IMG/VR virus record: IMGVR_UViG_3300044512_001236
Location: 1 to 24,185 of that record
Reading direction: 5' to 3' (one strand)
DNA: 24,185 nucleotides
Source: a virus
Lineage: Duplodnaviria > Caudoviricetes
The notes below the pieces were generated by a model that saw only the letters and a program-made list of their open reading frames with translations, was not told where the DNA came from and ran no database searches. Made by a program: the position numbers and the translations under genes. Positions 1 through 20,293 of the stretch are shown piece after piece (within the stretch, counting starts at the first letter, position 1; every line of letters begins with the position of its first letter).

Positions 1-2
1 AT

Positions 3-608
3 GCACTAACTAGAAATTCAAGTTCATATTTTCATAGAGCAATAAGAAAATATGGAAAAGAAAATTTTGTTATTGAAGAAGTTGAAATATGCGAAGAAAA
101 TTTGACTGATAGAGAAGTATTTTGGATTTCTGAATTAAAACCAAAATATAATCAAACTATTGGTGGAGATAATGGAATTCTTGGATACTCTCATACTGAA
201 GAAACTAAAAAGATAATATCTCAAAAGAATACTGGAAAATTTGTAGGCAACAAAAATCCATTCTATAATCAAACACATACAGAGGAACAAAAGAAGAACT
301 GGAGTAAAATGAGAAAAGGGCAACCATCTCCTTGTGGATTTGCTGGAAAATCACATAAAGAAGAAAGCAAAAGTAAAACATCTCAAACACTCAAAAATAA
401 TCCAAATGTGAAAAGAACCAAAGTATTTCAGTATGATATTGAAGGAAACTTTTTAAGAGAGTTTCAATCTATTAGTGATGCTTCTAAATTTGTAGGAACA
501 ACTCCTTCTAATATCAAATATACTTGCGAGGGAAAATTTAAGCACTGCAAAGGATACAAGTGGAGTTATAAAAAAAATGAACCAATATTAAAAGCACAAA
601 TAGTGTGA
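3..608 (+). CDS. GIY-YIG homing endonuclease with NUMOD3 and NUMOD1 DNA-binding repeats (5'-truncated by the window edge)
   Basis: The frame is open from position 3: ALTRNSSSYFHRAIRKYGKENFVIEEVE...REVFWISELKPKYN matches the C-terminal half of a GIY-YIG catalytic domain. It continues into NUMOD3-like repeats (HTEETKKIIS, NPFYNQTHTEEQK, GKSHKEESK) and a NUMOD1-like end (VFQYDIEGNFLREFQSISDASK...GYKWSY). Visibly AT-rich. Confidence 0.85.
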   Translation, partial: ALTRNSSSYFHRAIRKYGKENFVIEEVEICEENLTDREVFWISELKPKYNQTIGGDNGILGYSHTEETKKIISQKNTGKFVGNKNPFYNQTHTEEQKKNWSKMRKGQPSPCGFAGKSHKEESKSKTSQTLKNNPNVKRTKVFQYDIEGNFLREFQSISDASKFVGTTPSNIKYTCEGKFKHCKGYKWSYKKNEPILKAQIV

Positions 609-613
609 TTTAA

Positions 614-642
614 TAGACAAAACCATAATCTTGAGGTATGAT
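614..642 (+). promoter_or_regulatory. sigma70-like promoter (TAGACA-N17-TATGAT)
   Basis: TAGACA at 614-619, exactly 17 nt spacer, TATGAT at 637-642. The same hexamer pair occurs at 21617-21645. Confidence 0.6.
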
Positions 643-673
643 GAAAACCAAATATTTTTTAGAGGTAAATAGA

Positions 674-727
674 ATGTGTGAGTTAAGTTCAGTAGAGGAG
701 GGCGAGTGTGAGTCTTGCGCAGTTTAA
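674..727 (+). other. Orphan NrdA C-terminal tail mini-ORF (MCELSSVEEGECESCAV*)
   Basis: ATG at 674, AGAGGT Shine-Dalgarno at 661-666, TAA at 725-727. The acidic tail ending in CxxC-A-V is typical of class Ia NrdA C-termini, and it overlaps the nrdB start. Confidence 0.75.
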
Positions 728-1901
728 GGTCTCATCGGTGAATAATAATACGATGGCAAAGGTTGAAGGAATGACGGTTTTTAATACCGAAGTTCATGAT
801 GCCAAGAAACAACCAATGTTTTTTGGCAAACCACTTGGGGTTCAGAGATATGATTCTTATAAGTATCCTATCTTTGATAAACTTACAACTCAACAGTTGG
901 GATATTTTTGGAGACCTGAAGAGGTATCTCTACAAAAAGATAGAGCAGACTATCATACATTGAGACCCGAACAGAAGCATATCTATACTTCCAATCTGAA
1001 GTATCAGATCATGTTGGATTCTATTCAGGGTCGTGGTCCCGGTATGGCATTCATTCCTTATTGTTCACTACCTGAACTAGAGGCATGTATGGAAGTGTGG
1101 GGATTCATGGAGATGATTCATAGTCGTTCTTACACATACATCATCAAGAACATCTATCCAGACCCTAGTGATATCTTTGATCACATCATTACAGATCCTA
1201 GAATTCTGGAGAGAGCAAAGAGTGTAACTGAATCTTATGATTCATTTATCAACAGTGCACAAGCATGGGGTAATGGTGAACTGTGGTCAAGTGACTTTAG
1301 AGATACCCATGTTTCTCAAGATAGTATCAAAGATGTAAAACGCAAACTCTATAGGGCAGTTGCGAATGTTAATATCCTTGAGGGTATTAGATTCTATGTC
1401 TCTTTTGCTTGTAGTTTTGCCTTTGGTGAACTCAAACTTATGGAAGGATCTGCAAAGATTATTTCATTGATTGCTAGAGATGAGAACCAACACCTTGCGA
1501 TCACTCAGAACATTCTGAACAAGTGGGCTGCCGGTGATGATCCTGAAATGAAACAAATCATGAAGGAAGAGCAGGAGTGGTTGTATGCAATGTTTGATAA
1601 AGCCGTGAACGAAGAGAAGCGTTGGGCAGATCACTTGTTCAAAGATGGTAGTATGATTGGTCTTAATGATGCTCTACTCAAGAAGTATGTTGAGTGGGTT
1701 GCCAATCGTAGAATGAAGGCCATTGGTCTTAAACCTGTCTATGATGTTGCCGCCAAGAACAATCCTCTTCCTTGGACACAACATTGGATAAGCAGCAAAG
1801 GGTTGCAGGTAGCCCCACAAGAGACTGAGAACGAGAGTTATATCGTTGGAGGTATCAAACAAGATGTCAAAAAAGATACCTTCTCAGGATTCCAACTCTG
1901 A
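708..1901 (+). CDS. nrdB: Ribonucleotide reductase class Ia beta subunit
   Basis: FWRPEEV, LDSIQ, EMIHSRSY (radical Tyr), EGIRFYVSF, RDENQH and the VAPQETE tail. GTG start with GAGGAG SD at 695-700; an alternative ATG lies at 753. Confidence 0.97.
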   Translation: MSLAQFKVSSVNNNTMAKVEGMTVFNTEVHDAKKQPMFFGKPLGVQRYDSYKYPIFDKLTTQQLGYFWRPEEVSLQKDRADYHTLRPEQKHIYTSNLKYQIMLDSIQGRGPGMAFIPYCSLPELEACMEVWGFMEMIHSRSYTYIIKNIYPDPSDIFDHIITDPRILERAKSVTESYDSFINSAQAWGNGELWSSDFRDTHVSQDSIKDVKRKLYRAVANVNILEGIRFYVSFACSFAFGELKLMEGSAKIISLIARDENQHLAITQNILNKWAAGDDPEMKQIMKEEQEWLYAMFDKAVNEEKRWADHLFKDGSMIGLNDALLKKYVEWVANRRMKAIGLKPVYDVAAKNNPLPWTQHWISSKGLQVAPQETENESYIVGGIKQDVKKDTFSGFQL

Positions 1902-1989
1902 TTTTATTCAAAAACTAATCAAATATTATAAGAAAATAAAAGCCAAAAAGTTAGACGACTATATATTTCAGGACTATGAAGAAAAGTGA

Positions 1990-2418
1990 GTGTGTGACTA
2001 CGAGAACCCTTGGTTGTTTAAAGGTGAACCCTTTACCTCCAATCTTATTGGGGATAACTTTGGCTTTGTTTATCTCATTACCAACATTTCCTCCAACCGT
2101 AAATACCTCGGAAGGAAATACTTTTGGTCCTTTAGAACCCCTAAAGGAAAGAAGCGTAAGGTAAAACAAGAATCCGATTGGAAAAAATACTATGGTTCAT
2201 GTCCTGAATTAAAAGAGGATGTGGACCTTTTTGGTAAGGATAAATTCTCTAGAGAGATACTTTCCTTACACGATACCAAGGGTCAAACTAACTTTGAGGA
2301 GACCCGTCAGTTGTTTCTGAACGAGGTTCTGTCTCAAAGGTTGACAGATGAGACACCCCTGTATTACAATTCAAACATCCTTGGGCGGTACTACCGAAAG
2401 GATTATTACAATAAATAA
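1990..2418 (+). CDS. Small stand-alone GIY-YIG-family nuclease (conserved in T4-like phages)
   Basis: GFVYLITN...RKYLGRK variant of the GIY-YIG motif, YYGS, FSREIL, E..., YYNSNI. No appended DNA-binding domain. Confidence 0.75.
   Translation: MCDYENPWLFKGEPFTSNLIGDNFGFVYLITNISSNRKYLGRKYFWSFRTPKGKKRKVKQESDWKKYYGSCPELKEDVDLFGKDKFSREILSLHDTKGQTNFEETRQLFLNEVLSQRLTDETPLYYNSNILGRYYRKDYYNK
2410..2417 (+). promoter_or_regulatory. T4-type late promoter box (AATAAATA)
   Basis: NATAAATA box about 30 nt upstream of the lysozyme-like ORF. Confidence 0.5.
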
Positions 2419-5901: not shown

Positions 5902-6396
5902 ATGAAGATTGGTTTTAACTGTAGTTCCTTTGACTTGTTTCATGCGGGACATGTGACAATGTTGAAGATGGAAAAAGAACTATGTGATTATCTTGTAGTT
6001 GCTCTTCAAGTTGATCCTACTATTGACAGACCAGGTATCAAGAACAAACCTACACAGAGTGTGTACGAGAGGTATGTACAACTCCAAGGTTGTAAGTATG
6101 TTGATGAGATTTTGGTATATGAAACCGAGGATGATCTTATCAATCTGATCAAAACTCAAACAATTGATATTAGATTCCTAAGTGAAGAGTATAAAGATAG
6201 AGACTTCACAGGAAAACAATACTGTATCGATAATAATATTGAACTACACTATCATTTAAGACGACATAAGTATTCTTCCACTGAACTCAGGAATAGAGTT
6301 TATACATTGGAGAATGCAAAAAGAACAGAACTAGTTCCAGGAGAAGTATTAGATCAATACTCACCAGAACTTCTTAACAAGTATGAAAAATCATGA
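5902..6396 (+). CDS. Glycerol-3-phosphate cytidylyltransferase-like (TagD family) nucleotidyltransferase
   Basis: FDLFHAGH (HxGH), LVVALQVDP, QSVYER, YVDEI and SSTELR motifs. Confidence 0.85.
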   Translation: MKIGFNCSSFDLFHAGHVTMLKMEKELCDYLVVALQVDPTIDRPGIKNKPTQSVYERYVQLQGCKYVDEILVYETEDDLINLIKTQTIDIRFLSEEYKDRDFTGKQYCIDNNIELHYHLRRHKYSSTELRNRVYTLENAKRTELVPGEVLDQYSPELLNKYEKS

Positions 6397-7310
6397 GTAT
6401 TTTAGTTACGGGTGGTGGAGGATTCATTGGAAGTAATCTTCTCCACTATCTTGAACAGTTTGGTGAGGAAGTTATATGTGTTGACAATCTTTCTTATGCC
6501 GCAGATGAAACTAATCTTCCAGATTATGTAAAGTTTTATCGAGTAGATATTGCTGACGAACAATCGGTACGACATGTATTTGATTCCGAGAGTATTACAA
6601 AAATCTTTCACCTTGCAGCAGAGAGTCATGTAGATAATTCAATCAAAGATTGTAAACCTTTCATTCAATCTAACATTATAGGTACTGTCAATCTTCTTCA
6701 GTGTGCATTAGAACATGAAGTAAGTAGATTTATGCACATCTCTACTGATGAGGTGTTTGGTTCTATCGCATATGGTTCCTTCAATGAGATATCTAGATAC
6801 CGACCAAGGAATCCATACTCTGCATCTAAAGCAGCAAGTGATCATTTTGTAAATGCATACAACATCACATACGGATTACCAACTATTATTACAAACTGTT
6901 CTAATAACTACGGACCAAGACAACATCCTGAGAAGATGGTACCCAAAACTATCTTAAGTCTCATGAATGGCAAACCAGTTGATGTGTATGGTAGTGGATT
7001 ACAAATTCGTGACTGGATCTATGTTGAGGATCATTGTAAGGCCCTTGTAGAACTGTCTAATAGGGGTAGAATAGGTCAGAGTTATAACATCGGTGGTGAG
7101 TGTGAACTAAAGAACATTGAACTTGTTCATCGTATTGCTGGACTGATGAATAAAGAATTGGAAATTAACTTTATCAAAGATAGACCAGGACATGATCAAA
7201 GATATTCAACATCTAATGATAAGATCACAACTGAAACACCTTGGACTACTAGTGTAGATATTAATGAAGGTCTCTTAAAAACTATCAAATATTATTATGA
7301 ACAGAATTGA
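6393..7310 (+). CDS. rfbB: dTDP-glucose 4,6-dehydratase
   Basis: GGGGFIG, HLAAESHVDNSI, HISTDEVFG, PYSASKA, NNYGPRQHPEK, DRPGHDQRY. Confidence 0.93.
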   Translation: MSILVTGGGGFIGSNLLHYLEQFGEEVICVDNLSYAADETNLPDYVKFYRVDIADEQSVRHVFDSESITKIFHLAAESHVDNSIKDCKPFIQSNIIGTVNLLQCALEHEVSRFMHISTDEVFGSIAYGSFNEISRYRPRNPYSASKAASDHFVNAYNITYGLPTIITNCSNNYGPRQHPEKMVPKTILSLMNGKPVDVYGSGLQIRDWIYVEDHCKALVELSNRGRIGQSYNIGGECELKNIELVHRIAGLMNKELEINFIKDRPGHDQRYSTSNDKITTETPWTTSVDINEGLLKTIKYYYEQN

Positions 7311-7377
7311 TACCCCTATCCTCTCGGACAAAGATACAATTGGAAAGACTATGAGTGAGTGTGAAAAGTATGACTGA
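7297..7377 (+). pseudogene. rfbC: Internally deleted remnant of dTDP-4-dehydrorhamnose 3,5-epimerase (26 aa)
   Basis: MNRIDTP|ILSDKDTIGKTMSECEKYD*: an RfbC-type N-terminus fused to the RfbC C-terminal PILSxKD motif. It overlaps the rfbB end and the next start codon. Confidence 0.65.
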
Positions 7378-8191
7378 CCTTTCTTTATTCGGAGGTACTG
7401 GATATATTGGTTCAACATATGAACGAATGTATCCCGGTAATGTAATCATTCCTCGTGGTCAACGACATTTTGACACTAAGAATGTTCTGTATTTTATTAG
7501 TACAACAACTAATCAGAATATCTTTAAAGATCTACAGGTTGATATCGATGTCAATCTAAAAATCTTTACTGAATTCTTATCACATTGTAAGAGAACTGAT
7601 ACTGTAATCAACTTTGTAAGTTCGGGGTTTGTTTATGGTAATGATATTCTAGATGCAAAAGAGACTGACTGTTGTAATCCAACTGGGTTCTATTCTATTA
7701 CTAAAAGATGTGCAGAACAACTTTTGATCTCTTATTGTGAGACCTTTGGTATCAAGTATCGTATCTTTAGACTTGGCAATGTCTTTGGTATTGACCCAAC
7801 AGTATCACAAGGTAAGAATGTTCTAGGTTATATGATCCGTCGTTTGAAGAATGATGATTACATCGTATTGTATGATGGAGGTGATTATGTCAAAGATTAT
7901 ATGTGGGTAGAGGATGTCTGTAGGTCAATGAAACTTCTGATAGATGAGTCTGATACCAATCAAATCTATAACATTGGTACTGGTGTATCTCGTTCGTTCA
8001 GAGAAGTTATCGAGTATGCAAAAGACTATATTGGGAGTAACAGTGAGTTGATTAGTACAGAGATACCTGAGGATCAGAAGTATCTACAGATTAAAAACTT
8101 CACAATGAATGTGGATAAACTTTTATCCTATGGTCATGTTCCAAACCTCACAATTGATACTGGAGTCGAAATGATGTGTAAAGCGTATTGA
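7370..8191 (+). CDS. NAD-dependent epimerase/dehydratase (extended SDR)
   Basis: GGTGYIG, SSGFVYG, YSITK (YxxxK), FRLGNVFG, YNIGTG. Likely start is ATG 7370. Confidence 0.85.
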   Translation: MTDLSLFGGTGYIGSTYERMYPGNVIIPRGQRHFDTKNVLYFISTTTNQNIFKDLQVDIDVNLKIFTEFLSHCKRTDTVINFVSSGFVYGNDILDAKETDCCNPTGFYSITKRCAEQLLISYCETFGIKYRIFRLGNVFGIDPTVSQGKNVLGYMIRRLKNDDYIVLYDGGDYVKDYMWVEDVCRSMKLLIDESDTNQIYNIGTGVSRSFREVIEYAKDYIGSNSELISTEIPEDQKYLQIKNFTMNVDKLLSYGHVPNLTIDTGVEMMCKAY

Positions 8192-8221
8192 CTGTAAAAC
8201 TTAATTTTGGTAAAATAAATA
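8188..8221 (+). promoter_or_regulatory. Overlapping sigma70-like promoter and late box
   Basis: TTGACT 8188-8193, 17 nt spacer, extended TG, TAAAAT 8211-8216. AATAAATA at 8214-8221. Confidence 0.7.
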
Positions 8222-8241
8222 GTAAGTAACAAATTAAATGT

Positions 8242-9306
8242 ATGTCTGAATTTAAGAAAACCGCATTGGTACTAGGTGCGGGTGGGTTTATTGGTAGTCA
8301 CATGGTAAAAAGACTACGATCAGAAGGTTACTGGGTTCGTGGTGTTGACCTAAAGAGACCTGAGTATTCTGACACTGAAGCAAACGAATTCATTCAAGGT
8401 GACTTGAGAGATAGGAGTTTTGTTCGTCGTTGTATTCGTACCACTGGTATCAATGGTGGGTTCTATGCACAGATTGTTGACAAGTTTCTGTCACCCTTCG
8501 ATGAGATTTATCAGTTTGCTGCTGACATGGGTGGTGCAGGATTTGTATTTACTGGTGAGAACGATGCAGACATCATGCATAACTCTGTGTCTATCAATCT
8601 GAATGTCCTTGAAGAGCAACATCTTCTTAACTTGGACAAAGATGTAAACAAGACAAAGATCTTCTACTCTGGGTCTGCATGTATGTACCCAGAACATAAT
8701 CAACTTGATCCTGATAACCCTGACTGTCGTGAAGAATCCGCATACCCAGCAGCCCCAGACTCCGAGTACGGATGGGAGAAACTCTTTTCTGAGCGCTTAT
8801 ACTTTGCTTATAATCGCAATCATGGTATTCCCGTTAGGGTTGCACGTTATCACAACATTTTCGGACCAGAAGGAACCTGGGACGGTGGAAGAGAGAAGGC
8901 ACCAGCTGCAATCAGCCGTAAAGTTGCTTACCTCCCGAACGTCGGTGGAGGTATCGAGGTGTGGGGAGATGGCTTACAAACTCGTTCCTTCTTGTACATT
9001 GACGAATGCATTGAAGCAACTCGACGATTGATGGACAGTGACTTCATCGGACCAGTTAACATTGGTTCTGAAGAGATGGTCACTATCAATCAACTTGTAG
9101 AGACTGCTGCTAAGGTTTCTGGTAAGGTAGTACGTAAACTATACAAACTTGATGCACCTACAGGTGTTCGTGGTCGTAACTCTAACAATGATCTCATTCG
9201 TGAGAAACTTGGATGGGATTACTCTCAAAGTCTTGAAGAGGGTATTCGTAAAACATACGAATGGATCTGTACACAAATTGAGGAAAAGACTGATGAAAGT
9301 ATTTGA
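8242..9306 (+). CDS. GDP-mannose 3,5-epimerase-like SDR
   Basis: GAGGFIG, FAADMGGAGF, SACMYP, YGWEK, RYHNIFGPEGTWDGGREKAPAA and GVRGRNS are characteristic of the GME-like subfamily. Confidence 0.88.
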   Translation: MSEFKKTALVLGAGGFIGSHMVKRLRSEGYWVRGVDLKRPEYSDTEANEFIQGDLRDRSFVRRCIRTTGINGGFYAQIVDKFLSPFDEIYQFAADMGGAGFVFTGENDADIMHNSVSINLNVLEEQHLLNLDKDVNKTKIFYSGSACMYPEHNQLDPDNPDCREESAYPAAPDSEYGWEKLFSERLYFAYNRNHGIPVRVARYHNIFGPEGTWDGGREKAPAAISRKVAYLPNVGGGIEVWGDGLQTRSFLYIDECIEATRRLMDSDFIGPVNIGSEEMVTINQLVETAAKVSGKVVRKLYKLDAPTGVRGRNSNNDLIREKLGWDYSQSLEEGIRKTYEWICTQIEEKTDESI

Positions 9307-10177
9307 TGTATTTCTTTTTGGTTATGAACTAGATCTACTTGAGATTCGTATGAATCTCCTTGAACCTTATGTTGATTACTTTGTATTCAGTGAAGGTGGT
9401 AAGACATTCTCTGGTGAAGATAAAGGGTTCATCTTTGATATAACTGATGAACGGTTCAAAAAATTTGAAGATAAGATCATCTATACTAAGATTGAAGAAC
9501 CAACATCCGAACAACTTCAGGCACAAGGTGTAAAGTATAATGTAAAGAAAGAATCCTTTATGAGAGATACTTTCTATAAGGATAGTATCATCGATGTTCT
9601 CAAAGAACATTGTTCTGATGAGGATGTAATCATCTGGTCTGATCTGGATGAAGTACCTAACCCTGAAGTCATTGAACAGATTAAAGACTTCTATGAACCC
9701 GGTACGGTATATAACTTTGCACAAGATAACTACCAAGCTGCATTGAATTGGTTTGAAACTACAGGTACTATTACCTCTCAAACACAAGACTTCTCTTATG
9801 AAGAAGAAGGTCCACGTTGGATCGGTACTAAGTTGTGTGACTTTGCCACACTAAGTAAGTATTCTTTAACTAACATGAGACGTGAACTTCCTCAAGAGAA
9901 TAATCTAAGAATCTATCCTGGTGGTTGGCATTGGAGTACAGTTGGTAGTGATGAAGAGTGTACTATGTACGAGAGAGTGATGAAGAAGATCAAGTCTTCT
10001 GCCCACACTGAACTCAATAATGAAAAACTTATTGGGGAACTTGAACAGAGACTGAAGGATGGTAGATCACCACTAGGTCAAGACAATGCATCATACTGTA
10101 TTACTCACTTCGATGAAGATAGATTCCCACAGTATCTAATTGACAACCAAGAGAAGTATTCTTATTTGATCAAATGA
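9293..10177 (+). CDS. Glycosyltransferase family 17-like (beta-1,4-GlcNAc transferase)
   Basis: FDVFLF..ELDLLEIR..L.PYVDYFV..E...TFSG, SDLDEVP, GGWHWS. Likely start is ATG 9293. Confidence 0.82.
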   Translation: MKVFDVFLFGYELDLLEIRMNLLEPYVDYFVFSEGGKTFSGEDKGFIFDITDERFKKFEDKIIYTKIEEPTSEQLQAQGVKYNVKKESFMRDTFYKDSIIDVLKEHCSDEDVIIWSDLDEVPNPEVIEQIKDFYEPGTVYNFAQDNYQAALNWFETTGTITSQTQDFSYEEEGPRWIGTKLCDFATLSKYSLTNMRRELPQENNLRIYPGGWHWSTVGSDEECTMYERVMKKIKSSAHTELNNEKLIGELEQRLKDGRSPLGQDNASYCITHFDEDRFPQYLIDNQEKYSYLIK

Positions 10178-11133
10178 TTGTAACTGAAATTTATAGGGGT
10201 TCTGGACTGGGAAACCAGATCTGGAACCTGGTGGTATCTAGAATCCTTGCACATAGACATGGATATAAGTGGGGTGTAAAGAAAAGTACTCCATTCAAGG
10301 CAAGAAAGTTCATGCCAGACTTTGATTATGGTGAAGAAGTAGTTGGTGGTCATACTCCTAGAGAGGGACAACCACCAGAATCATTACCTAATGGTATCAC
10401 TCATTACATTTGTGAGAGGAATGATCCTCTTCCACAGTGTGGTCATAGTGGTATCTTTTTTGATCCTGGTCTATGGAATAATCTTCCTGATAACTCAAAG
10501 ATTGATGGACTCTTTCAGTGTTTAGAGTATATCAATGACCGTAAAGATGATATTCGTCAGTGGTTATCTCATAATGTAAATGTTACTGAGTATTCTGATG
10601 AAGATATTTGTGTCATTCACTTCCGTGGTGGTGAGTATTTGATTACTGCGTCATGGTTAGAACCAAAGTTCTATGAGAATGCACGTGATAGGATGTTGGA
10701 ACACAATCCAAACATGAAGTTTGTAGTTGTGACTGATGATCCAGAGAATGCAAACAAGTTTATTCCATGGGCCAAGGTTGTAGGTGCAACTACACTCAAG
10801 GAACAAGAAGACATCGAACAAGGAACAGGGTTCTTCAAATATAAAGGAGGTAATATTGGTGTTGATTATTCTATTCTACATAATGCTAGGAACGTCATCA
10901 TGTCAGCATCAACATTCTCCTTCTGGCCAGTATGGACATCTAATGTTACACCAAAGGTCATTGCACCCAAGTACTGGTTTGACCATAAAACTTCCAACGG
11001 TTGGTGGAGAGGTGACGATATGATCGTCAAAGATTGGGATTATATCGATAGAGAAGGCAAACTCTTCAGTGGTCCTGATTGTCAAAGAGAGTATGATCTT
11101 TACAGGATCAAGACTCCATATTATAATCTTTAA
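10174..11133 (+). CDS. Glycosyltransferase family 11-like (alpha-1,2-fucosyltransferase)
   Basis: GLGNQ, GLFQ, HFRGGEY, VVTDD, STFSFW, VIAPKYW. Confidence 0.82.
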   Translation: MIVTEIYRGSGLGNQIWNLVVSRILAHRHGYKWGVKKSTPFKARKFMPDFDYGEEVVGGHTPREGQPPESLPNGITHYICERNDPLPQCGHSGIFFDPGLWNNLPDNSKIDGLFQCLEYINDRKDDIRQWLSHNVNVTEYSDEDICVIHFRGGEYLITASWLEPKFYENARDRMLEHNPNMKFVVVTDDPENANKFIPWAKVVGATTLKEQEDIEQGTGFFKYKGGNIGVDYSILHNARNVIMSASTFSFWPVWTSNVTPKVIAPKYWFDHKTSNGWWRGDDMIVKDWDYIDREGKLFSGPDCQREYDLYRIKTPYYNL

Positions 11134-11147
11134 AGATAGAGAGTAAC

Positions 11148-12443
11148 ATGTATCAATTGATTGAAAACTTCATTCAATCCGCAAAGGAGATGGATGATAA
11201 TGTGTTTCCATTCATGGCTAACAAGGATTGGAAGCCAGGTAACAATGTCTATTACTCTGGTCCATACTGGAATGATATGGAGGCACAGGAACTTATCTAC
11301 GCAGTAATGAAAGGTAAGTGGTTGTCTTCTGGTGAGAAGGTGAATAAGTTTGAGAAAGAGTTCTCTAATAGATTTGAGTTTGATCATTCGGTTATGGTGA
11401 ACTCTGGTTCATCAGCCAACCTGGTGATGATTGCTGCACTGAAGAAATACTTCGGGTGGGAAGATGGTGATGAGATCATCGTCTGTTCCTGTGGATTTGC
11501 AACTACCATTGCTCCTGTAGTTCAGGCTGGTCTGAAACCAGTCTTTGTTGATATCAACTGGGATGATCTGAACTGGAACATGGATCAGGTAGAAGAAAAG
11601 ATTACTGAAAGAACTCGTGCAGTATTCTCTTCACCTGTTCTAGGTAATGCGTATGACATGGATAGGTTGGTAGAACTTTGTAAGAGTAAAGATATTCATA
11701 TCATTGCAGACAACTGTGATAGTCTTGGGAGTAGATATAAGGGTGACTATCTTACTAAACATGCAGTTGCTGCATCATGTTCTTTCTATCCTGCACACCA
11801 TATCTGTACTATTGAAGGTGGTATGGTGTCATCTAATGTCAAGGCTATCGTAGACTTGGCTCGTAGTTTTGCTTGGTGGGGTCGTGGATGTTATTGTGTA
11901 GGACAACAGAACCTACTCTCTAACGGTGTCTGTGGCCGTCGTTTTGATGCTTGGTTAGATGGTTACGAAGACATTGTTGACCACAAGTATGTGTTCTCAC
12001 AGATGGGCTACAACTTGAAACCACTTGACATGCAGGGTGCAGTTGGTTCAGTTCAACTTCTAAAGTTTGATGAAATTCATAGATTGAGAAGGAAGAACAA
12101 AGAACGTATTCAAAATATCATCGAGACCATCGATGGTTGTCGTGTTGTCAATGAACGTGATGACAGTGAGACAAGTTGGTTTGGTGTTCCTATTGTATGT
12201 AATGATAAGAAACTAAAACACTCTCTTGTTGCTCATTTTGAGAAGAACAAAGTTCAGACACGTAATTACTTTGCAGGTAACATTCTTCTTCATCCTGGTT
12301 ACTCACATCTTGATGATGCAATGAAGTATCCTGAAGCCAATAAGGTATTGAACACAGTATTCTTCTTGGGTTGTTCACCAGTTATTACTGATGATATGAT
12401 AGACTATATTGAACAGGTAGTAGAGGACTTTAAAAATGCTTGA
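11148..12443 (+). CDS. rfbH: RfbH/DdhC-like NDP-4-keto-6-deoxyhexose 3-dehydratase (DegT/DnrJ family)
   Basis: VNSGSSANL, DNCDSLGS, SFYPAHHI (His in place of the PLP Lys), WGRGCYC Fe-S motif, YDHKY-like VDHKY, GYNLK. Confidence 0.85.
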   Translation: MYQLIENFIQSAKEMDDNVFPFMANKDWKPGNNVYYSGPYWNDMEAQELIYAVMKGKWLSSGEKVNKFEKEFSNRFEFDHSVMVNSGSSANLVMIAALKKYFGWEDGDEIIVCSCGFATTIAPVVQAGLKPVFVDINWDDLNWNMDQVEEKITERTRAVFSSPVLGNAYDMDRLVELCKSKDIHIIADNCDSLGSRYKGDYLTKHAVAASCSFYPAHHICTIEGGMVSSNVKAIVDLARSFAWWGRGCYCVGQQNLLSNGVCGRRFDAWLDGYEDIVDHKYVFSQMGYNLKPLDMQGAVGSVQLLKFDEIHRLRRKNKERIQNIIETIDGCRVVNERDDSETSWFGVPIVCNDKKLKHSLVAHFEKNKVQTRNYFAGNILLHPGYSHLDDAMKYPEANKVLNTVFFLGCSPVITDDMIDYIEQVVEDFKNA

Positions 12444-13158
12444 TCTATCCAGAGTTACATGCTTTGCGATTGACAATACAAATCGAATAGAAGAAACCAT
12501 CAATGCACTTCACACTTGTAAGAACGTAGCAAACTTTGGGGAGGTTAAGTTAGTTACCACCCCCAACTATGTCAACAAATACAAGGACGAATGTGTGTCT
12601 GATGGTATTTTAGTACAAGAACAAGTCAAACCTCTTACCAATATCGATGAATACAATTACTACATTCTTTACCACCTTCACAAACACATTAATACAGAGT
12701 TTTGCCTCCTCGTCCAGGATCATGCTTTTATTATTAATCCTGATGCTTGGAGGGAAGAGTTTTTCTCGTATGACTACATCGGAGCACCATGGCCAATCAG
12801 AGAAAGAGCATACATCACTCCCTATGGAGAACATCAAAGAGTAGGTAATGGTGGGTTCTCATTGAGATCAAAGAAACTTTTAAAAGTTCCACAAACACAA
12901 TGGATACCATTCAGAGTCGCAGACGTTGCACAGGACTTCTATAAGATGTTTGGTGGTAACAACACGAATGAGGACGGTAATATATGTGTCCACAACAAAC
13001 ACCTTTTTGAGATGAATGGATGTAAAATAGCTCCAGTAGAGGTAGCAAAATACTTTTCATATGAGTCCCCTGTCCCTGAGAACCAAGGTATAATTCCCTT
13101 TGGGTTCCACAATAATCTTCCACCTGGTGTCACCGTGGAGGGTTATAACCCCCGATAA
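12436..13158 (+). CDS. DUF5672-like glycosyltransferase-related protein
   Basis: LLVQDH, YDYIGAPW, VGNGGFSLRS, NED, FSYE, PFGFH. Confidence 0.75.
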   Translation: MLDLSRVTCFAIDNTNRIEETINALHTCKNVANFGEVKLVTTPNYVNKYKDECVSDGILVQEQVKPLTNIDEYNYYILYHLHKHINTEFCLLVQDHAFIINPDAWREEFFSYDYIGAPWPIRERAYITPYGEHQRVGNGGFSLRSKKLLKVPQTQWIPFRVADVAQDFYKMFGGNNTNEDGNICVHNKHLFEMNGCKIAPVEVAKYFSYESPVPENQGIIPFGFHNNLPPGVTVEGYNPR

Positions 13159-13161
13159 ATA
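13154..13161 (+). promoter_or_regulatory. T4-type late promoter box (GATAAATA)
   Basis: NATAAATA box 20 nt before ATG 13181, in one of the few intergenic gaps of the island. Confidence 0.4.
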
Positions 13162-13180
13162 CTACAGATTTGTTATTACT

Positions 13181-13864
13181 ATGTCATTTGTTTATAATGC
13201 TCCTTCCTTTGTGGAGGTAGACAATGTGTTCCCTGAAGGTCCAAAAAGAACTAACAATAACACAGCAGCATACACTCTCAATCACATTACCTTTGCAGAA
13301 AATGTGGATGAGTTTGGAGGAGAAGGAGATATTCTAGAGTTCGGTGTCTGTAGTGGTGGTACACTCCTCCCTATTGGACAGAAGAACCCATCACGTAAAG
13401 TCTTTGGTTTCGATCACTTCAAAGGTCTGGAAGTCACACAACAACCAACACCATCATATGCTGGTTGGGCAGAAGGTGCATTCCGTATTGGTGACCCACA
13501 GTATACTTGGATCCCCAAAACTGTAGAAGATGTTAAGAGAAAGTGTTCTGTCTCACCTAATATCAAAATCTTTGTTGAAGATGTTCATGATATGGTAGAG
13601 AAAGAACCATCTGATTTTGGTATTGGTAAGGTCGGTGCAATTCATATTGACCTAGACATCTACGAACCTACAGTATCAGCATTCAAGTTCATTGATAAGT
13701 GTGAGTGGGATAAACTTTATTTCCGTTTTGATGATTGGCATGGTCACGAACCTGACTATGATCATCATGAACGTAAAGCATTCAGAGAGTGGATTACCAA
13801 ACACGGATACAACTTCGAAATCATTGAAGATGGTATCAGTGCTGGTGTGAAGGTATGGAAATAA
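13181..13864 (+). CDS. Class I SAM-dependent O-methyltransferase (TylF/MycF-like)
   Basis: ILEFGV..GG, FGFDHF.GL, IHIDLDIYEPT, FDDW. Likely start is ATG 13181. Confidence 0.75.
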   Translation: MSFVYNAPSFVEVDNVFPEGPKRTNNNTAAYTLNHITFAENVDEFGGEGDILEFGVCSGGTLLPIGQKNPSRKVFGFDHFKGLEVTQQPTPSYAGWAEGAFRIGDPQYTWIPKTVEDVKRKCSVSPNIKIFVEDVHDMVEKEPSDFGIGKVGAIHIDLDIYEPTVSAFKFIDKCEWDKLYFRFDDWHGHEPDYDHHERKAFREWITKHGYNFEIIEDGISAGVKVWK

Positions 13865-14568
13865 AGGTATCAGTAGTTATCCCTTGCTATGAGTATGGTG
13901 GTAAGGGTGTCAGATACCTTTCTGATATACTTAGAACTATCTCACAACAAACAATCAAGGAAGTAGAAGTTATCATTCCAGACCACAGTGTCAACACTGA
14001 CATTGAAGAGTTCTGTCATGATAATATATTTGATCTTAACATCCTTCACTATAGAAATGAAGTAGATAGAGGTAATGCAGCATCCAATAAGAATGTTGGA
14101 ATGGACTTTGCCAGAGGTAAGGTTGTTAAGATGATGTATATGGACGACTACTTCTTTACTAATGATGCGTTAGAGAAAACTTATAATACATTAATGAACT
14201 CGGACAAGATGTGGTTGGTATGTGGTACTAATCATACTAGAGATGATGGTAAAACATTTGATACCTATATCATACCCCGGTGGAATGACAATATGTTACG
14301 GTCCAGAGGTAATAATACCATGAGTGGTGTCTCTGTGTTATCGTATAAGAATAATAACATGCACATCCGATGGGATCCTAACACCTGTATGTTGATGGAT
14401 GTAGACTTCTACTATTCATTGAGGTCTAAGTATGGTGATTGTATTTACTTGAACGATTGTATGATTACTCAACGTGTAAATAACGACGCTTTGTCATCCA
14501 CGACTAGTGACGAGGATGTACAAAAAGAATTTGTGTATTGTAGAGAGAAACACGGTATTATATTATGA
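13855..14568 (+). CDS. Glycosyltransferase family 2
   Basis: VSVVIPCY, QT..EVEVII.DHS, G.A..N.N.G...A.G, MDDY. Confidence 0.88.
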   Translation: MEIKVSVVIPCYEYGGKGVRYLSDILRTISQQTIKEVEVIIPDHSVNTDIEEFCHDNIFDLNILHYRNEVDRGNAASNKNVGMDFARGKVVKMMYMDDYFFTNDALEKTYNTLMNSDKMWLVCGTNHTRDDGKTFDTYIIPRWNDNMLRSRGNNTMSGVSVLSYKNNNMHIRWDPNTCMLMDVDFYYSLRSKYGDCIYLNDCMITQRVNNDALSSTTSDEDVQKEFVYCREKHGIIL

Positions 14569-15392
14569 AACATTACCTATCAATCGCATCTGTTTTCAAA
14601 AATGAAAGCTGGAATCTTAAGGAGTGGGTTTTACATTATAGGTATCACGGGGTTGATCACATCTATCTGGTTAACGACTTCAGTGATGATGAGTATATGC
14701 CTATACTTGAACCGTTTATTCGTGAAGGATTTGTTACTCTCTTCCAAAATAATATCACAGAAAAGTATACCGGTAGACAGACTGATGTAAACAATCGGTT
14801 CTTCTTACCTATCTGTAATAAAACTCAATGGATTGCACAAATCGATCTAGACGAATTTCTATATAGTCCTAAGACAGTAGACTTAAAAGAAGTCTTAAGG
14901 AACTACGAAGAGTACGGTACCGTTGAAACCAACTGGGTATGGTTTAATAGTAACGATCATATTTATCACCCTGATGGTGGTCTGGTTAAGAATTTTACTA
15001 GTCGTGCTGAATTTGGAGACAGGGTATGGATGACCCATCGATCCAGATGTGCTGGTGCAGGACAAGAAGAACCTGAATGGTTTAATCTCTGGGCACCTAA
15101 ACAGATTGCAAACACTAGATTTGGTGTACAATCTTTTAATATTCATAAGATATTCACTAGTGGACCTAACATCAACCTATCATTTGTTGGTAGACCAGAT
15201 GACCCTGAGATACTAAACAATCATTACCAGATTCAATCAAGAGAGTTCTGGGAAAAGATTAAGATGACAAGAGGTGCATTGAATAACTGGTACGCAGCCA
15301 ATGCAAGAGGTTGGCATACCTTCTATTCATTAGATGTAGGAGATACTATAGACACAACACTGGCAGAACAAAACAAGGAGATTGAATTATGA
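14565..15392 (+). CDS. Glycosyltransferase (GT92 / GT2-like)
   Basis: FKNESWNLKEWVLHY...GVDHIYL.ND.SDD, W...IDLDEF, NHY. Confidence 0.8.
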   Translation: MKHYLSIASVFKNESWNLKEWVLHYRYHGVDHIYLVNDFSDDEYMPILEPFIREGFVTLFQNNITEKYTGRQTDVNNRFFLPICNKTQWIAQIDLDEFLYSPKTVDLKEVLRNYEEYGTVETNWVWFNSNDHIYHPDGGLVKNFTSRAEFGDRVWMTHRSRCAGAGQEEPEWFNLWAPKQIANTRFGVQSFNIHKIFTSGPNINLSFVGRPDDPEILNNHYQIQSREFWEKIKMTRGALNNWYAANARGWHTFYSLDVGDTIDTTLAEQNKEIEL

Positions 15393-16195
15393 CTATTGGA
15401 ATGAACAACCTTGGTAATAATGGAAGAATTGGTAATCAACTATTCCAATATGCTGGACTTGTAGGTATTGCAAAGAATAAAGGTTATGACTTTAGAATCC
15501 CAGAAGACCAGGAACTCAGTAAATGTTTTGAAATGCTTCATTGTGGTAACCGTTATGGTCTTATTGACGGACCTGAGTGTGTTCTTCATGAGTCTCATAC
15601 ATTTGCAGAAGACCTTTTCAATGAGTGTCCTAATCACATTCATCTGAGTGGATACTTTCAGACAGAAAAGTATTTCAAGGATGCACAAAGATTATTGAAG
15701 TGGGACTTTAGATTCAAAGATGATATTATCAATGAAGTGGATTATGTCTATGGTGATATTCTAAGTACAAACCCTGTCTCTATCTGTGTGAGAGAGTATA
15801 ACGATCACTTTGATTATCCTGGTAGTCATAACAATCATCGTAATCTACCATGGGAATATTTTGAACGTGGTATTGAGATGTTAGGTAAGGACAGAACTTA
15901 TATTATCTGTTCAAACAATCTTGACTTATGTAAGGAACAAGAAGTGTTCAAAGGTGATAACTTCTACTTCAATGACGTTACAACTAAGGTAGAAAAGTCT
16001 CACTTTGATCTATGTTTGATTTCAAAGTGTTCAGACTTTATCACATCCAATAGTACGTTCAGTTGGTGGGGTGCATACCTGTCACAGAATTCAACCAAGA
16101 GAGTGATTGCACCAACTCCATGGTACGGTCCTGGTTTACAACATATTAGTACAGAAGACTTATACCCTGATTCATGGGAGGTAATTGAGGCATGA
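15389..16195 (+). CDS. Glycosyltransferase family 11-like
   Basis: GRIGNQLFQYA, GYFQTEKYF, NSTFSWWGAYL, VIAPTPWYG. The donor-binding motif is divergent (ICVREYND). Confidence 0.85.
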   Translation: MTIGMNNLGNNGRIGNQLFQYAGLVGIAKNKGYDFRIPEDQELSKCFEMLHCGNRYGLIDGPECVLHESHTFAEDLFNECPNHIHLSGYFQTEKYFKDAQRLLKWDFRFKDDIINEVDYVYGDILSTNPVSICVREYNDHFDYPGSHNNHRNLPWEYFERGIEMLGKDRTYIICSNNLDLCKEQEVFKGDNFYFNDVTTKVEKSHFDLCLISKCSDFITSNSTFSWWGAYLSQNSTKRVIAPTPWYGPGLQHISTEDLYPDSWEVIEA

Positions 16196-16971
16196 TTGAA
16201 ATTGCAATTCACGATGGTTCACCCGGCCTTGCAAATAGAATTAAGAACTATGCAGGTATTCTGAGAACATTCAAACAAGCACTGACAGTAAATGATGCAG
16301 ATGCATATATTTTTGACAATCTAAGACTTGCAACGGAGGATGAACTCACTACATATCCTTGTTACGATCATTGGAGACTTCCAATTCTCCCTGGTGAGGA
16401 TAGTAAACGAGGAGAATATAAGTACATCGATCTTCTGTATGAAGACACTCCAGAGTATTTTGTTGAACAGTATAAGAAAGCGTTTAGTTACTTACAACCT
16501 AGACAAGATATCGTAGATTATGTCAATGACTTTACTGAAGGTTGGAATAATGTAGTTGGTTTACATATCAGATCGTGGTATTGTGACAGACATAAGTATC
16601 ATAGTAACGAACTGTTTGAAAGTGTTATAGATACTTTCGACAAAGACAGAAGGATCTTTCTTTGTGGTGACAATAAAGATGTATTAAATCACTTCAAGAA
16701 TAAGTATGGTAATCGTATCATCACTCATTCTCAGAAGAAATATAATCATCCACACATGGCAGAGTCTGGACATAATAAGTCCATGCAAGACACAGTAGAT
16801 GCATTCATTGACTTGATGCTTCTGTCTAGATGTGATACTATTGTCGGTACATATGCCTCAACGTTTGCTGAGGTTGCGTGGTGGTTAGGAGATACCAAAC
16901 CCAAGGTTATTATTCCCGAACCATACAATGTAGAGGAATCATTTAAGAATAGGATTTTTGAGAAACTATGA
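16192..16971 (+). CDS. Fucosyltransferase-fold glycosyltransferase (NodZ/O-FucT-like)
   Basis: GLANRI, VVGLHIR, IFLCGD, AFIDLMLLSRCD.IVGT..STF. Confidence 0.7.
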   Translation: MIEIAIHDGSPGLANRIKNYAGILRTFKQALTVNDADAYIFDNLRLATEDELTTYPCYDHWRLPILPGEDSKRGEYKYIDLLYEDTPEYFVEQYKKAFSYLQPRQDIVDYVNDFTEGWNNVVGLHIRSWYCDRHKYHSNELFESVIDTFDKDRRIFLCGDNKDVLNHFKNKYGNRIITHSQKKYNHPHMAESGHNKSMQDTVDAFIDLMLLSRCDTIVGTYASTFAEVAWWLGDTKPKVIIPEPYNVEESFKNRIFEKL

Positions 16972-17864
16972 AAACCTCCCTTGTTACAGGTGGTGCTGGA
17001 TTTATCGGTAGTCACCTGGTGGACAAACTATTATCAATGGGTCACAATGTGATCGTTCTTGATAATGAATCATCTGAAGGTCACGATGATTATCATTGGA
17101 ACACTGGTGCAACAAACTACCCTGTAGACATTAGAAATTTTTATCATATTGCTGATAAGTTTAGAGGAGTTGATTATGTCTATCACCTTGCAGCTAAGGC
17201 AAGTGTTCAGGCATCGATTGACTTCCCACTTGACACAATGGAAACACAGGTTATGGGTACAGCCAATGTACTTGAGGCCGCCAGACAGTGTGGTGTAGAG
17301 AAGTTTATCTACTCTTCCACATCTGCATGTTATGGTAACAAGAACCCCATTCCAAACACTGAAGTGATGAGAGAAGACCCTCTCAATCCTTATGCTATTG
17401 GTAAACTTGCTGGTGAACAACTGGTCAAGTCATATCATGGTCTCCATGGTATGAAGACTGTAGCATTTAGATATACTAATGTGTATGGTGAGAGGGCAAG
17501 ACATGTAGGAACTTATGCTCCTGCAGTAAGTAAGTTTCTGAAGATGACCAGAGAGGGACAACCCATTACTATCTTCGGTGATGGTACACAACGTCGTGAC
17601 TTTATTCATGTATCTGATGTAGTCAATGCCAATGCACTGATTAGTTTTATGGAACTTGATAACTGGGGTGAGGTCTACAACATTGGGTATGGTGAGAACT
17701 GGAGTATTAAAGAGATTGCAGATGCCATCTCTGATGATCAGGTTTTCTTATCTGGTAAACCTGGTGAGATGAAAGAGACACTTGCAGATATTCGTAAGGC
17801 TAGAACAGAACTTACCTGGAAACCAAAAGTAAACATTCTTGATTGGATCAAAACACAACTATGA
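16968..17864 (+). CDS. NAD-dependent epimerase (UDP-hexose 4-epimerase-like)
   Basis: VTGGAGFIG, HLAA, SSTSACYG, PYAIGK, RYTNVYG, GDGTQRRDFIHV. Confidence 0.9.
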   Translation: MKTSLVTGGAGFIGSHLVDKLLSMGHNVIVLDNESSEGHDDYHWNTGATNYPVDIRNFYHIADKFRGVDYVYHLAAKASVQASIDFPLDTMETQVMGTANVLEAARQCGVEKFIYSSTSACYGNKNPIPNTEVMREDPLNPYAIGKLAGEQLVKSYHGLHGMKTVAFRYTNVYGERARHVGTYAPAVSKFLKMTREGQPITIFGDGTQRRDFIHVSDVVNANALISFMELDNWGEVYNIGYGENWSIKEIADAISDDQVFLSGKPGEMKETLADIRKARTELTWKPKVNILDWIKTQL

Positions 17865-18667
17865 TTGACCTATCACAAGCCACATTTATTATTCCTATCA
17901 GAATTGAATCTCCAGATAGGTTAAGGAATGTTATTACTACTACTGCATTTCTGTTAGAGAACTTTGATACAAACATTATCATCAAAGAAGTTGATAGTGA
18001 ATCTGTATTTGAAAGAGATGCTCTTCCAATTCTTAAAAGTATCTTGGATGTAGATGTCAATATCAATCACATCTTTGAGAAGAGTGATGCTCCTTTGTTT
18101 CATAGACAAAGAGTTCTCAATGAGATGATTATGGAAGCTGATACAAAGATAGTTGTGAACTATGACTGTGATGCAATTCTTCCTCTGGAATCATACGAAC
18201 TAGCATACACTGGTATTCTTGATGGTATCTACGATGTTGTATATCCTTATGCATCTGGTAACTATCAGTATCAAGTGGAACGATCAGACAACGTTGTTTC
18301 ACATTTCCTAGAGACAAATGACTATGAGTATCTGAAATCACATTCTAAAGTTCACGATGCACAGTATGGACATGTACAGTTCTTCAACCGTGATGTTTAT
18401 ATCAAAGGTGGTATGGAGAATGAAAACTTTAAAGCCTATGCACCAGAAGACAAGGAAAGGTTTTACAGATTCACAAAACTAGGTTATAGTGTAGGACGTA
18501 TATCTGACTACATATACCATCTCGAACATTCTCGCGGTGAGAATTCTTGGTTTTCTAATCCTCACATGAATTCTAATATGTCTGAATGGGATAAGATTCA
18601 AAAACTGACTAAAGAAGAACTCATAGAGTATTACTCGGTCCAAAGTTATCTTAAAAAGTATCAATGA
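17861..18667 (+). CDS. Glycosyltransferase, GT-A fold (GT2/GT7 galactosyltransferase-like)
   Basis: TFIIPIRIES.DR.RN, YDCD, GGMENENF.AYAPED, YHLEH. Likely start is ATG 17861. Confidence 0.78.
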   Translation: MIDLSQATFIIPIRIESPDRLRNVITTTAFLLENFDTNIIIKEVDSESVFERDALPILKSILDVDVNINHIFEKSDAPLFHRQRVLNEMIMEADTKIVVNYDCDAILPLESYELAYTGILDGIYDVVYPYASGNYQYQVERSDNVVSHFLETNDYEYLKSHSKVHDAQYGHVQFFNRDVYIKGGMENENFKAYAPEDKERFYRFTKLGYSVGRISDYIYHLEHSRGENSWFSNPHMNSNMSEWDKIQKLTKEELIEYYSVQSYLKKYQ

Positions 18668-19512
18668 AAATTCTTAATCTAGGTTCTGGTGGTCAGATAG
18701 GTGCATACCTGTCTGACTATCTTCGTAAAAAGGGTCACGAAGTTTTTGATTTCGACATCACAAATGGTCCAGAACAGGATCTAACTCTGATTCCAAATCT
18801 ATCTCTTGAACATTATGTAAAAGAATCAGACTTCGTATTCTTTCTTGCATTTGATGTGGGTGGATCACGATACCTGAAGAAGTATCAACATACCTTTGAC
18901 TTTATCAATAACAACACTCGTCTGATGGCGAATGTATTTGGTTTGTTAGAGAAGCATCATAAGAGATTTATCTTTGCATCTTCACAGATGGCAAATATGA
19001 GTTACTCACCCTATGGTATTCTTAAAACTGTAGGAGAACTATACACTAAGTCACTCAAAGGATTGACAGTTAAGTTCTGGAATGTATATGGTATTGAGAA
19101 AGACCATGAGAAGTCTCATGTAATTACTGACTTTATTCGTAGAGGGTTTGAGGAGGGTCAGTTTGAGATGATGACTGACGGTACAGAAGAAAGACAGTTC
19201 CTGTATGCTGAAGACTGTTGTAGAGGTCTTGAGACTATCATGGAATGTTATACTGATTTCAAACCTGAAGATGAACTTCACTTGACATCATTCCATTGGA
19301 ATACAATCAAAGATGTTGCACATATTATCTCTGGTCAATTCAATATAATTAACAGACCAGTTAGTATTACTCCAGGTACTTCAAAAGATAGTGTTCAACT
19401 TGACAAGAGGAATGAAGCCAGTAATTATATTCATGGATGGTGGATTCCAGAGACTACAATTGACCAGGGTATTGCAAAAGTATTCAACGAAATGAAAAAT
19501 GATTGGGTTTGA
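18664..19512 (+). CDS. NAD-dependent epimerase/dehydratase
   Basis: GSGGQIG, FLAFDVGG, FASS, YGILK, NVYG, RQFLY. Confidence 0.85.
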   Translation: MKILNLGSGGQIGAYLSDYLRKKGHEVFDFDITNGPEQDLTLIPNLSLEHYVKESDFVFFLAFDVGGSRYLKKYQHTFDFINNNTRLMANVFGLLEKHHKRFIFASSQMANMSYSPYGILKTVGELYTKSLKGLTVKFWNVYGIEKDHEKSHVITDFIRRGFEEGQFEMMTDGTEERQFLYAEDCCRGLETIMECYTDFKPEDELHLTSFHWNTIKDVAHIISGQFNIINRPVSITPGTSKDSVQLDKRNEASNYIHGWWIPETTIDQGIAKVFNEMKNDWV

Positions 19513-20293
19513 TTATCTCGGAAAGGCTGGACAACTGGGTAACCAGATGTTTCAGTTTGCAGGTACAAAAGGTATTGCACAAAATCGAGGATACGATATG
19601 TGTATCCCTGACCACGATGAAAAATTCAATGATGGTATAGGTAACATACTTCGTATCGAACTTGATGATGCATTTGACATCGAGTGTCAAAGAGGTATAA
19701 TAGGTTCGAACGTTCTTCAAGAACAAAGTTTTCACTTTGATGAAACCTTATTCAATGAATGTCCAGACAATCTAAGTCTGTATGGTTTCTTCCAGACGGA
19801 GAAGTACTTCAAACATATTGAAGATGATATACGTAAAGACTTTACATTCAAAAAGAAAATTCAAGATGAATGTAAAGAAATTGTTGAAGAAGTGTTCGAT
19901 CAGAATCCTATCGCCTTACACATTCGTAGAGGTGATTTTCTAATCAACAGTGGTAATCATCATAACCTTTCTCTTGATTGGTATGAGAAAGCACTGAAGA
20001 AGTTTGATCCTGATAGAGAAGTCATCATATTTTCTGATGATGTATTCTGGGCATCTGCTCAAGAACTGTTCAAACCTGATAGGTTCATTATCTCTGATGG
20101 TAATAGTTCTTATCATGATATGTTTATGATGACACAGTGTAGTGACTTCATCATTGCAAACTCCACCTTCTCATGGTGGGGTGCCTGGTTAGCAAACACT
20201 GGTAGAGTTATTGCTCCATCTAAGTGGTTTGGACCAAACAACTCACACTTAAATACAAAAGACCTGTACCCTGATCATTGGGAGATTTTATAA
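19499..20293 (+). CDS. Glycosyltransferase family 11
   Basis: GQLGNQMFQFA, GFFQTEKYF, HIRRGDF, FSDD, NSTFSWWGAWL. Confidence 0.9.
   Translation: MIGFDYLGKAGQLGNQMFQFAGTKGIAQNRGYDMCIPDHDEKFNDGIGNILRIELDDAFDIECQRGIIGSNVLQEQSFHFDETLFNECPDNLSLYGFFQTEKYFKHIEDDIRKDFTFKKKIQDECKEIVEEVFDQNPIALHIRRGDFLINSGNHHNLSLDWYEKALKKFDPDREVIIFSDDVFWASAQELFKPDRFIISDGNSSYHDMFMMTQCSDFIIANSTFSWWGAWLANTGRVIAPSKWFGPNNSHLNTKDLYPDHWEIL

Follow-up and report, generated by a model that had tools for sequence, protein, structure and literature searches.

A stranded nrdA 3' end before nrdB in a cyanophage, likely left by a GIY-YIG homing cassette

Homing elements with duplicated gene ends

Homing elements that duplicate the end of their host gene are known, and the locus described here is a phage variant of these. 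The closest counterparts are mitochondrial endonuclease elements with a C-terminal duplication, which occur in atp6 of Allomyces macrogynus and in atp6, atp9, cox2 and nad3 of Glomus (PMC3630166). In these elements, as in ours, the gene owes its completion to a 3' end of foreign origin, behind which come first the endonuclease ORF and then the native end. As in those elements, the downstream copy is nearer to element-free relatives than the upstream copy is, here in 32 of 32 haplotypes. The differences are that our element carries a phage GIY-YIG enzyme, and that of about 50 displaced codons no more than the last 16 are left, which hold the Shine-Dalgarno (SD) sequence and start codon of the next gene. 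Because so few of the displaced codons are kept, the locus works like the Allomyces and Glomus type without being a member of it.

The free-standing homing endonucleases of T4, which include SegF, SegG and mobE between nrdA and nrdB, and hef of phage U5, are a second point of comparison (PMC2988022, PMC2790892). Features shared with them are a gene at the nrdA/nrdB junction, a late promoter within a ribosome-binding-site hairpin, a distant target with co-conversion (predicted in our case), and carriage of control signals for the host genes. However, T4 mobE is an HNH enzyme that nicks the 5' part of nrdB, whereas the predicted target here is the 3' end of nrdA. Unlike the situation with T4 mobE, duplication is forced here because the host genes overlap.

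Two further systems share some of these features. The nrdA-a/mobE/nrdA-b arrangement of phage Aeh1 also has an endonuclease in the nrd operon and a new ATG downstream of it, but there the active site is divided between two chains, both of them required, while NrdA is one complete chain in our locus (PMC3045599). Genes fractured by split inteins have the same TATAAATA hairpin before the endonuclease, and the 3' end of the element supplies the downstream start codon, but there is no intein at the tail site described here; such an arrangement is found instead at nrdA codon 435, for example in contig L006 (PMC2677866). In a literature search of limited coverage, neither this cyanophage cassette nor a duplication forced by gene overlap was found described, and the part of PMC10448857 consulted holds nothing on such an arrangement.

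The nrdA/nrdB junction in the window

The window, that is, the whole stretch of 24,185 nt analysed (IMG/VR record IMGVR_UViG_3300044512_001236; Duplodnaviria, Caudoviricetes), has a junction region that falls among T4-like Synechococcus and Prochlorococcus phages by blastn. The features described here between positions 1 and 1901 are on the plus strand. The window opens with the 3' part of a free-standing GIY-YIG/NUMOD3/NUMOD1 endonuclease gene (1–608), assigned by matches above cut-off to TIGR01453 and PF01541 and by identity to contig L002. A preliminary description, made from the sequence alone, had placed behind this gene a TAGACA at 614, a TATGAT at 637 after a 17-nt spacer, an AGAGGT at 661, and an ATG at 674 opening MCELSSVEEGECESCAV followed by a stop codon (674–727), overlapping the GTG of nrdB at 708. 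All of these lie where they were placed. The stranded tail is real, located 3' of the endonuclease frame and running into the nrdB start; codons 3–17 of the 17-codon micro-ORF are nrdA-derived. The longest open frame that ends in the tail has 29 aa, begins at an ATG at 638, ends at 727, and has no Pfam match. The description had also recognised the peptide as an NrdA C-terminus, and this is borne out: 44 of 48 nt are shared with loci that lack the endonuclease, such as L118, at the end of their nrdA, and blastn aligns the sequence from 689 onwards with cultured Synechococcus phages across their nrdA/nrdB junction.

Two features are absent from that description. First, the nrdB SD sequence, AGGAGG (696–701), lies within the tail, where it is formed by the E-E-G codons 6 nt before the GTG. 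The class Ia beta subunit gene, nrdB (708–1901), starts inside the first cysteine codon of the tail and overlaps it by 20 nt. Secondly, a late-promoter-like TAAATA (666–671), predicted to serve nrdB, overlaps the SD-like AGAGGT (together 661–671).

A complete nrdA and a free-standing endonuclease upstream

The virus record is the window itself, and the upstream sequence was therefore taken from identical contigs, L001 (no mismatches over 5605 nt) and L002 (none over 4714 nt). Upstream of the window the two disagree at 13 of 817 bases, and they may represent the same population as the window. In L002, nrdA is a single ORF of 765 aa with the C-terminus LLQELSSVEEEDCESCKI, the last residues before the stop being EDCESCKI, so that it has a CxxC of its own. 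The ORF spans positions 1–760 of the 761 in PRK09103, a class Ia model, and is thus not divided in the Aeh1 manner.

The endonuclease gene in L002 encodes 236 aa and follows 53 nt after the stop of this complete nrdA; its start lies about 100 nt upstream of the first base of the window. PF01541, NUMOD3 and NUMOD1 all score above cut-off, the domain composition of Seg-type enzymes. No intron or intein encloses the gene, the genes on either side are intact, and alleles with and without the element both exist. The 53-nt spacer forms a hairpin (z = -4.45) that has TATAAATA at the apex and AGGU in the stem, an arrangement like that described for I-TevI and Aeh1 mobE (PMC2988022).

Carriers were collected by a search with the endonuclease (best 80 of 92 relatives). 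Within these best 80, the GIY-YIG motif is found in 79, and both TATAAATA before the endonuclease and a CxxC closing nrdA occur in 77 of the 78 with the respective region or nrdA end in view; the exception for the CxxC, L033, has an early nrdA stop, with the CxxC DNA still present downstream. A scan for the junction pattern returned 32 stretches, mostly from contigs already known, and wherever they include the end of nrdA, which 25 do, it is a CxxC end with this endonuclease in between. No cultured phage with this endonuclease was found, all 412 matches having less than 60% identity.

In carriers L003–L080, passenger ORFs of 65–365 aa form a shuffling array between the endonuclease and nrdB. 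Several of them start like GIY-YIG genes, and they are joined at a recurring GGAGTTATGAAAA-type junction located at the 3' end of the endonuclease.

The overlap of nrdA and nrdB, and what is kept of it

Junctions were compared in the best 80 of 599 confirmed nrdB relatives, from an estimated total of about 3100 nrdB stretches, and in three GenBank phages; L154, which has no anchor, was set aside and the other 82 were classed. They comprise 57 of overlap type, 17 with separated genes, 6 without an nrdA end, and 2 carriers. In 56 of the 57 endonuclease-free overlap junctions, an in-frame GTG with an SD sequence stands 20 nt ahead of the last base of the nrdA stop codon; the remaining junction has GCG. 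The SD is formed by the E-E-G codons of nrdA, and the GTG lies inside the first cysteine codon. The 20-nt overlap is annotated likewise in phages RN05-S and S-SM2, while nrdB of S-H68 is annotated from a later start. Since the SD and GTG are inside the nrdA end, an insertion after an overlap-type nrdA must either make a second copy of the overlap or provide nrdB with a new start.

Each of these outcomes is found in the 74 carriers in which the 5' end of nrdB is in view. An ATG-started frame with CxxC is found in 29 of them, and the same frame with CESD in one. In 22 the ATG is in another frame and the stop falls on the GTG, and in 2 the tail has neither form. The remaining 20 have no remnant of the overlap, and those inspected by eye have a new ATG for nrdB. 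In L006, whose nrdB is 95% identical, the frame stops before the cysteines. The cultured Synechococcus phage DSL-LC02 has an unrelated, weakly HNH-like gene at its nrdA/nrdB junction (L194:2306–2977; E 0.008, below cut-off) that ends in NESNKI and thereby has the same 20-nt overlap with nrdB in the absence of cysteines. Judged from these alleles, it is the overlap and the nrdB start that are kept, not the redox pair. The persistence of the tail cysteines is probably due mainly to their overlap with the GTG start and codons 3–4 of nrdB, and to recopying from intact alleles. Separately, L009, L055 and L059 have, just ahead of nrdB, a second small ORF, free of cysteines, that ends on the old nrdA stop and overlaps a new nrdB start.

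In 71 of 74 carriers, tail-less ones among them, a TAAATA is no more than 125 nt away from the nrdB anchor; the motif is not enriched (15 found against 23 expected), so that its conserved position alone counts. Cyanomyoviruses have a late motif, NATAAATA (PMC2984593), with which GGTAAATA of the window agrees only in its last six letters. The preliminary description had given the tail its own promoter. The sigma70-like motif (614–642) is in place, and 28 of 74 carriers have it with the same spacing, but within the window such matches are at chance level (7 sites against 8.1 in shuffles), and it is best called a candidate.

An addition to the preferred reading, which is set out below, is that the micro-ORF undergoes translation and is under selection for coupling, whatever its peptide, replacing the flow of ribosomes from nrdA onto the nrdB start. 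We regard this as possible but doubtful. An ATG stands 2 nt after TAAATA in 56 of 74 carriers, and in 21 of 26 haplotypes the ORF extends to or into the nrdB start, some having the 20-nt overlap and others a GTGA overlap with a different peptide; DSL-LC02 keeps the same overlap by means of another ORF. A transcript from the sigma70-like site would carry both the SD at 661 and the ATG at 674. However, 18 of 74 carriers have no such ATG, nrdB has a strong SD of its own, and no structure above shuffles was found over the tail that could hide it (z 0.1–0.9). Spacing as in T4 late promoters would probably put the start of a TAAATA transcript at or after the ATG. Moreover, a micro-ORF that reaches nrdB is to be expected, because the native tail from which it descends was already open in both frames.

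Origin of the stranded tail

A stranded tail is present in 58 of the best 80 of 92 carriers, in 33 haplotypes. All 32 comparable tail haplotypes are nearer to an endonuclease-free nrdA end than to that of their own genome (median 46 vs 27 of 48 nt), in a comparison, anchored on the stop, of the best of 72 endonuclease-free ends against a single own end. The window's own tail, with its 44 of 48 nt in common with the endonuclease-free type, shares 26 of 48 with the nrdA end of its own genome. In several pairs, the match to an endonuclease-free phage runs from nrdB to 47–50 nt before the stop and ends there; this ungapped leftward extension is unsuited to pairs with indels in the N-terminal part of nrdB, the window included.

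The tail of the window (678–727, about 50 nt) is a mosaic, in which 680–702 is identical to the L118 type and 691–736 matches L087 except for one base, the switch falling in a shared core of 12 nt. In L043, the tail is joined to an intergenic stretch that resembles the separated-type L102 (29 of 30 nt). We infer that both the mosaic and the L043 junction fit crossovers inside the tail. Synonymous against other changes number 8 vs 5 in well-preserved stranded tails and 16 vs 15 in native tails; this ratio reveals no decay or relaxed selection in the stranded tails, and does not separate selection from recent copying.

A foreign nrdA end and a predicted target

The upstream gene in carriers is completed by a foreign 3' end, which makes up the last 50 or so codons of nrdA. 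When the last 300 codons were compared among 48 carrier, 50 overlap-type and 16 separated-type haplotypes, nucleotide identity at aa 716–725 was 0.88 for overlap-type and 0.63 for carriers. The decapeptide TTYKYGWKTS is present in 56 of 57 overlap-type, 4 of 17 separated-type and 0 of 76 carrier loci; carriers have 16 variants of it instead, none of the common type. Fisher's test on these data gives p = 3e-17, which overstates the case because the loci are related and the counts non-independent. As the exact decapeptide is missing from 13 of the 17 endonuclease-free separated-type junctions, part of the contrast with carriers may be a matter of lineage.

Matched pairs point to the same place. 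Across 27 pairs, identity falls to 0.59–0.60 at aa 710–724, while in 43 control pairs it rises to 0.93. Over the 165 nt compared that end with codon 716, L056 and L129 differ at 2 positions; from the very next base they diverge, with about 75% identity or less, until the match resumes 47 nt before the stranded stop. Other pairs break 5–15 codons earlier (about aa 700–712). Such a pattern would be expected if this were a homing target, with co-conversion and with alleles that resist cutting, as in intronless homing (PMC2988022, PMC2790892). The cut site in endonuclease-free nrdA is predicted to lie near codons 716–725, although the GIY-YIG-like passenger ORFs of many cassettes could provide an alternative cutter.

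Five loci without this endonuclease (L086, L144, L145, L149 and L157) have recoded decapeptides of carrier type, and their junctions are separated. Loss of the element may explain them, and L086 retains sequence from the right end of the cassette.

A probable homing cassette with a renewable right border

Taken together, we consider it probable that the tail at 678–727 is the recipient's old nrdA end, left in place by a GIY-YIG homing cassette, with nrdA itself complete upstream. The old end was likely spared because it contains the ribosome-binding site and start codon of nrdB. The endonuclease would be made late, from its hairpin-gated promoter, and would cut endonuclease-free nrdA near codons 716–725, about 150 nt before the stop. 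Repair from a carrier would then introduce the endonuclease, in many cases passenger genes too, and a 3' end that is recoded, resists cutting and has a CxxC of its own. The right-hand crossover would fall in the tail of about 50 nt or in nrdB, making the tail a homology arm as well, renewed from each recipient, while the right end of the cassette would give nrdB its TAAATA and sometimes a sigma70-like promoter. Of the three options first put forward, the one supported is that nrdA received a replacement 3' end upstream and that the present copy is kept because nrdB initiates in it. An insertion about 17 codons before the end of nrdA had also been suggested; this describes the right border correctly, but the exchanged tract begins about 50 codons before the end.

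On this account, a selfish endonuclease can settle between overlapping essential genes that offer no intergenic space, since the cassette brings the first gene a new end and the old end stays as the start of the second. Because the cut site is predicted to within a few codons, the enzyme is directly testable. NrdA has a conserved tyrosine pair with a role in radical transfer, and the 16 carrier variants suggest that homing pressure diversified the residues beside it. For annotation, a tail of this kind should not be called a split nrdA, and the nrdB start should be sought inside it.

A competing account of the foreign end, which we consider improbable, is that a one-off illegitimate insertion was followed by ordinary recombination, nrdA being no target and the recoded decapeptide a lineage trait. 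The replacement ends do look like nrdA alleles of the separated type, and many of those alleles differ at the site without having this endonuclease. It is difficult to reconcile, however, with 16 carrier decapeptides of which none is the common type, with near-identical pairs that break at the site, and with an endonuclease ORF that is intact in 79 of the best 80 of 92 carriers.

Redox, split-gene and intron readings

Tail cysteines re-reduce the active site of NrdA (PMC9531940). A more novel possibility is that the cassette makes the 17-aa CxxC peptide, which would act alongside a complete NrdA as an additional free redox shuttle or as a thioredoxin or glutaredoxin decoy, while its translation would also couple ribosomes onto nrdB, so that the scar would have become a functional micro-gene. 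We consider this very unlikely, and give a redox role of the peptide in general equally little credence.

The preliminary description had, in its title, presented the peptide as a separately made redox tail, one option being that NrdA is split and the tail supplied in trans. The SD, the ATG and the intact CxxC of the window micro-ORF, also present in 29 of 74 carriers, would permit this, but 45 of the 74 are unable to make the peptide, with L020 having CESD and L006 stopping before the cysteines. The upstream nrdA, read in L002, is complete and has its own CxxC, which refutes the split; it is extremely improbable, and the picture of a free tail is unneeded to account for the locus.

The chance that the tail is the 3' exon of a group I intron is close to nil: the endonuclease does match TIGR01453, named 'group I intron endonuclease', but nrdA reaches its own stop before it, only 53 nt separate the two and only about 70 nt lie downstream of the endonuclease ORF, and Rfam searches found no intron at E<=1 in window positions 1–2000 or at E<=0.01 in L002. 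The Rfam matches obtained were a chance snoRNA (window 1–2000) and tRNA-type and minor ones (related contigs, L002 included). A skip of 893 nt in two RNA-library contigs was considered as a splice and rejected; the joint contains 10 foreign letters and there are 56 differences in nrdB, and it therefore represents an endonuclease-free relative. Nine RNA runs had small shares (0.05–0.16), and among the contigs of the four examined none extends across the locus. A split intein at the tail site was likewise rejected, as nrdA is complete before the element and the 29-aa frame is without a Pfam match.

Other observations

Split inteins do occur elsewhere in these nrdA genes. In L006 (1340–4842), which was read together with L008, nrdA is fractured at codon 435, where the halves of a split intein flank a second GIY-YIG gene in the manner of PMC2677866. 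Gaps like that at codon 435 are also found in L012, L013, L027, L028, L050 and L058, while L008 has a contiguous in-frame insert at nrdA codon 435 and L025 a gap of similar size. L058 (9966–10002) further has an Rfam abiF match above the gathering score, among tRNA genes.

In the window itself, a SegE-like gene with a GIY-YIG domain lies directly 3' of nrdB (1990–2418; PF19835). Positions 5902–21096 hold a long sugar-nucleotide and glycosyltransferase island, with epimerases, a DegT aminotransferase, GT2, GT11, GT17, GT25 and GT92 enzymes and a NodZ-like gene, and genes for purC (SAICAR synthetase) and a purM-like AIR synthase are found at 21672–23299.
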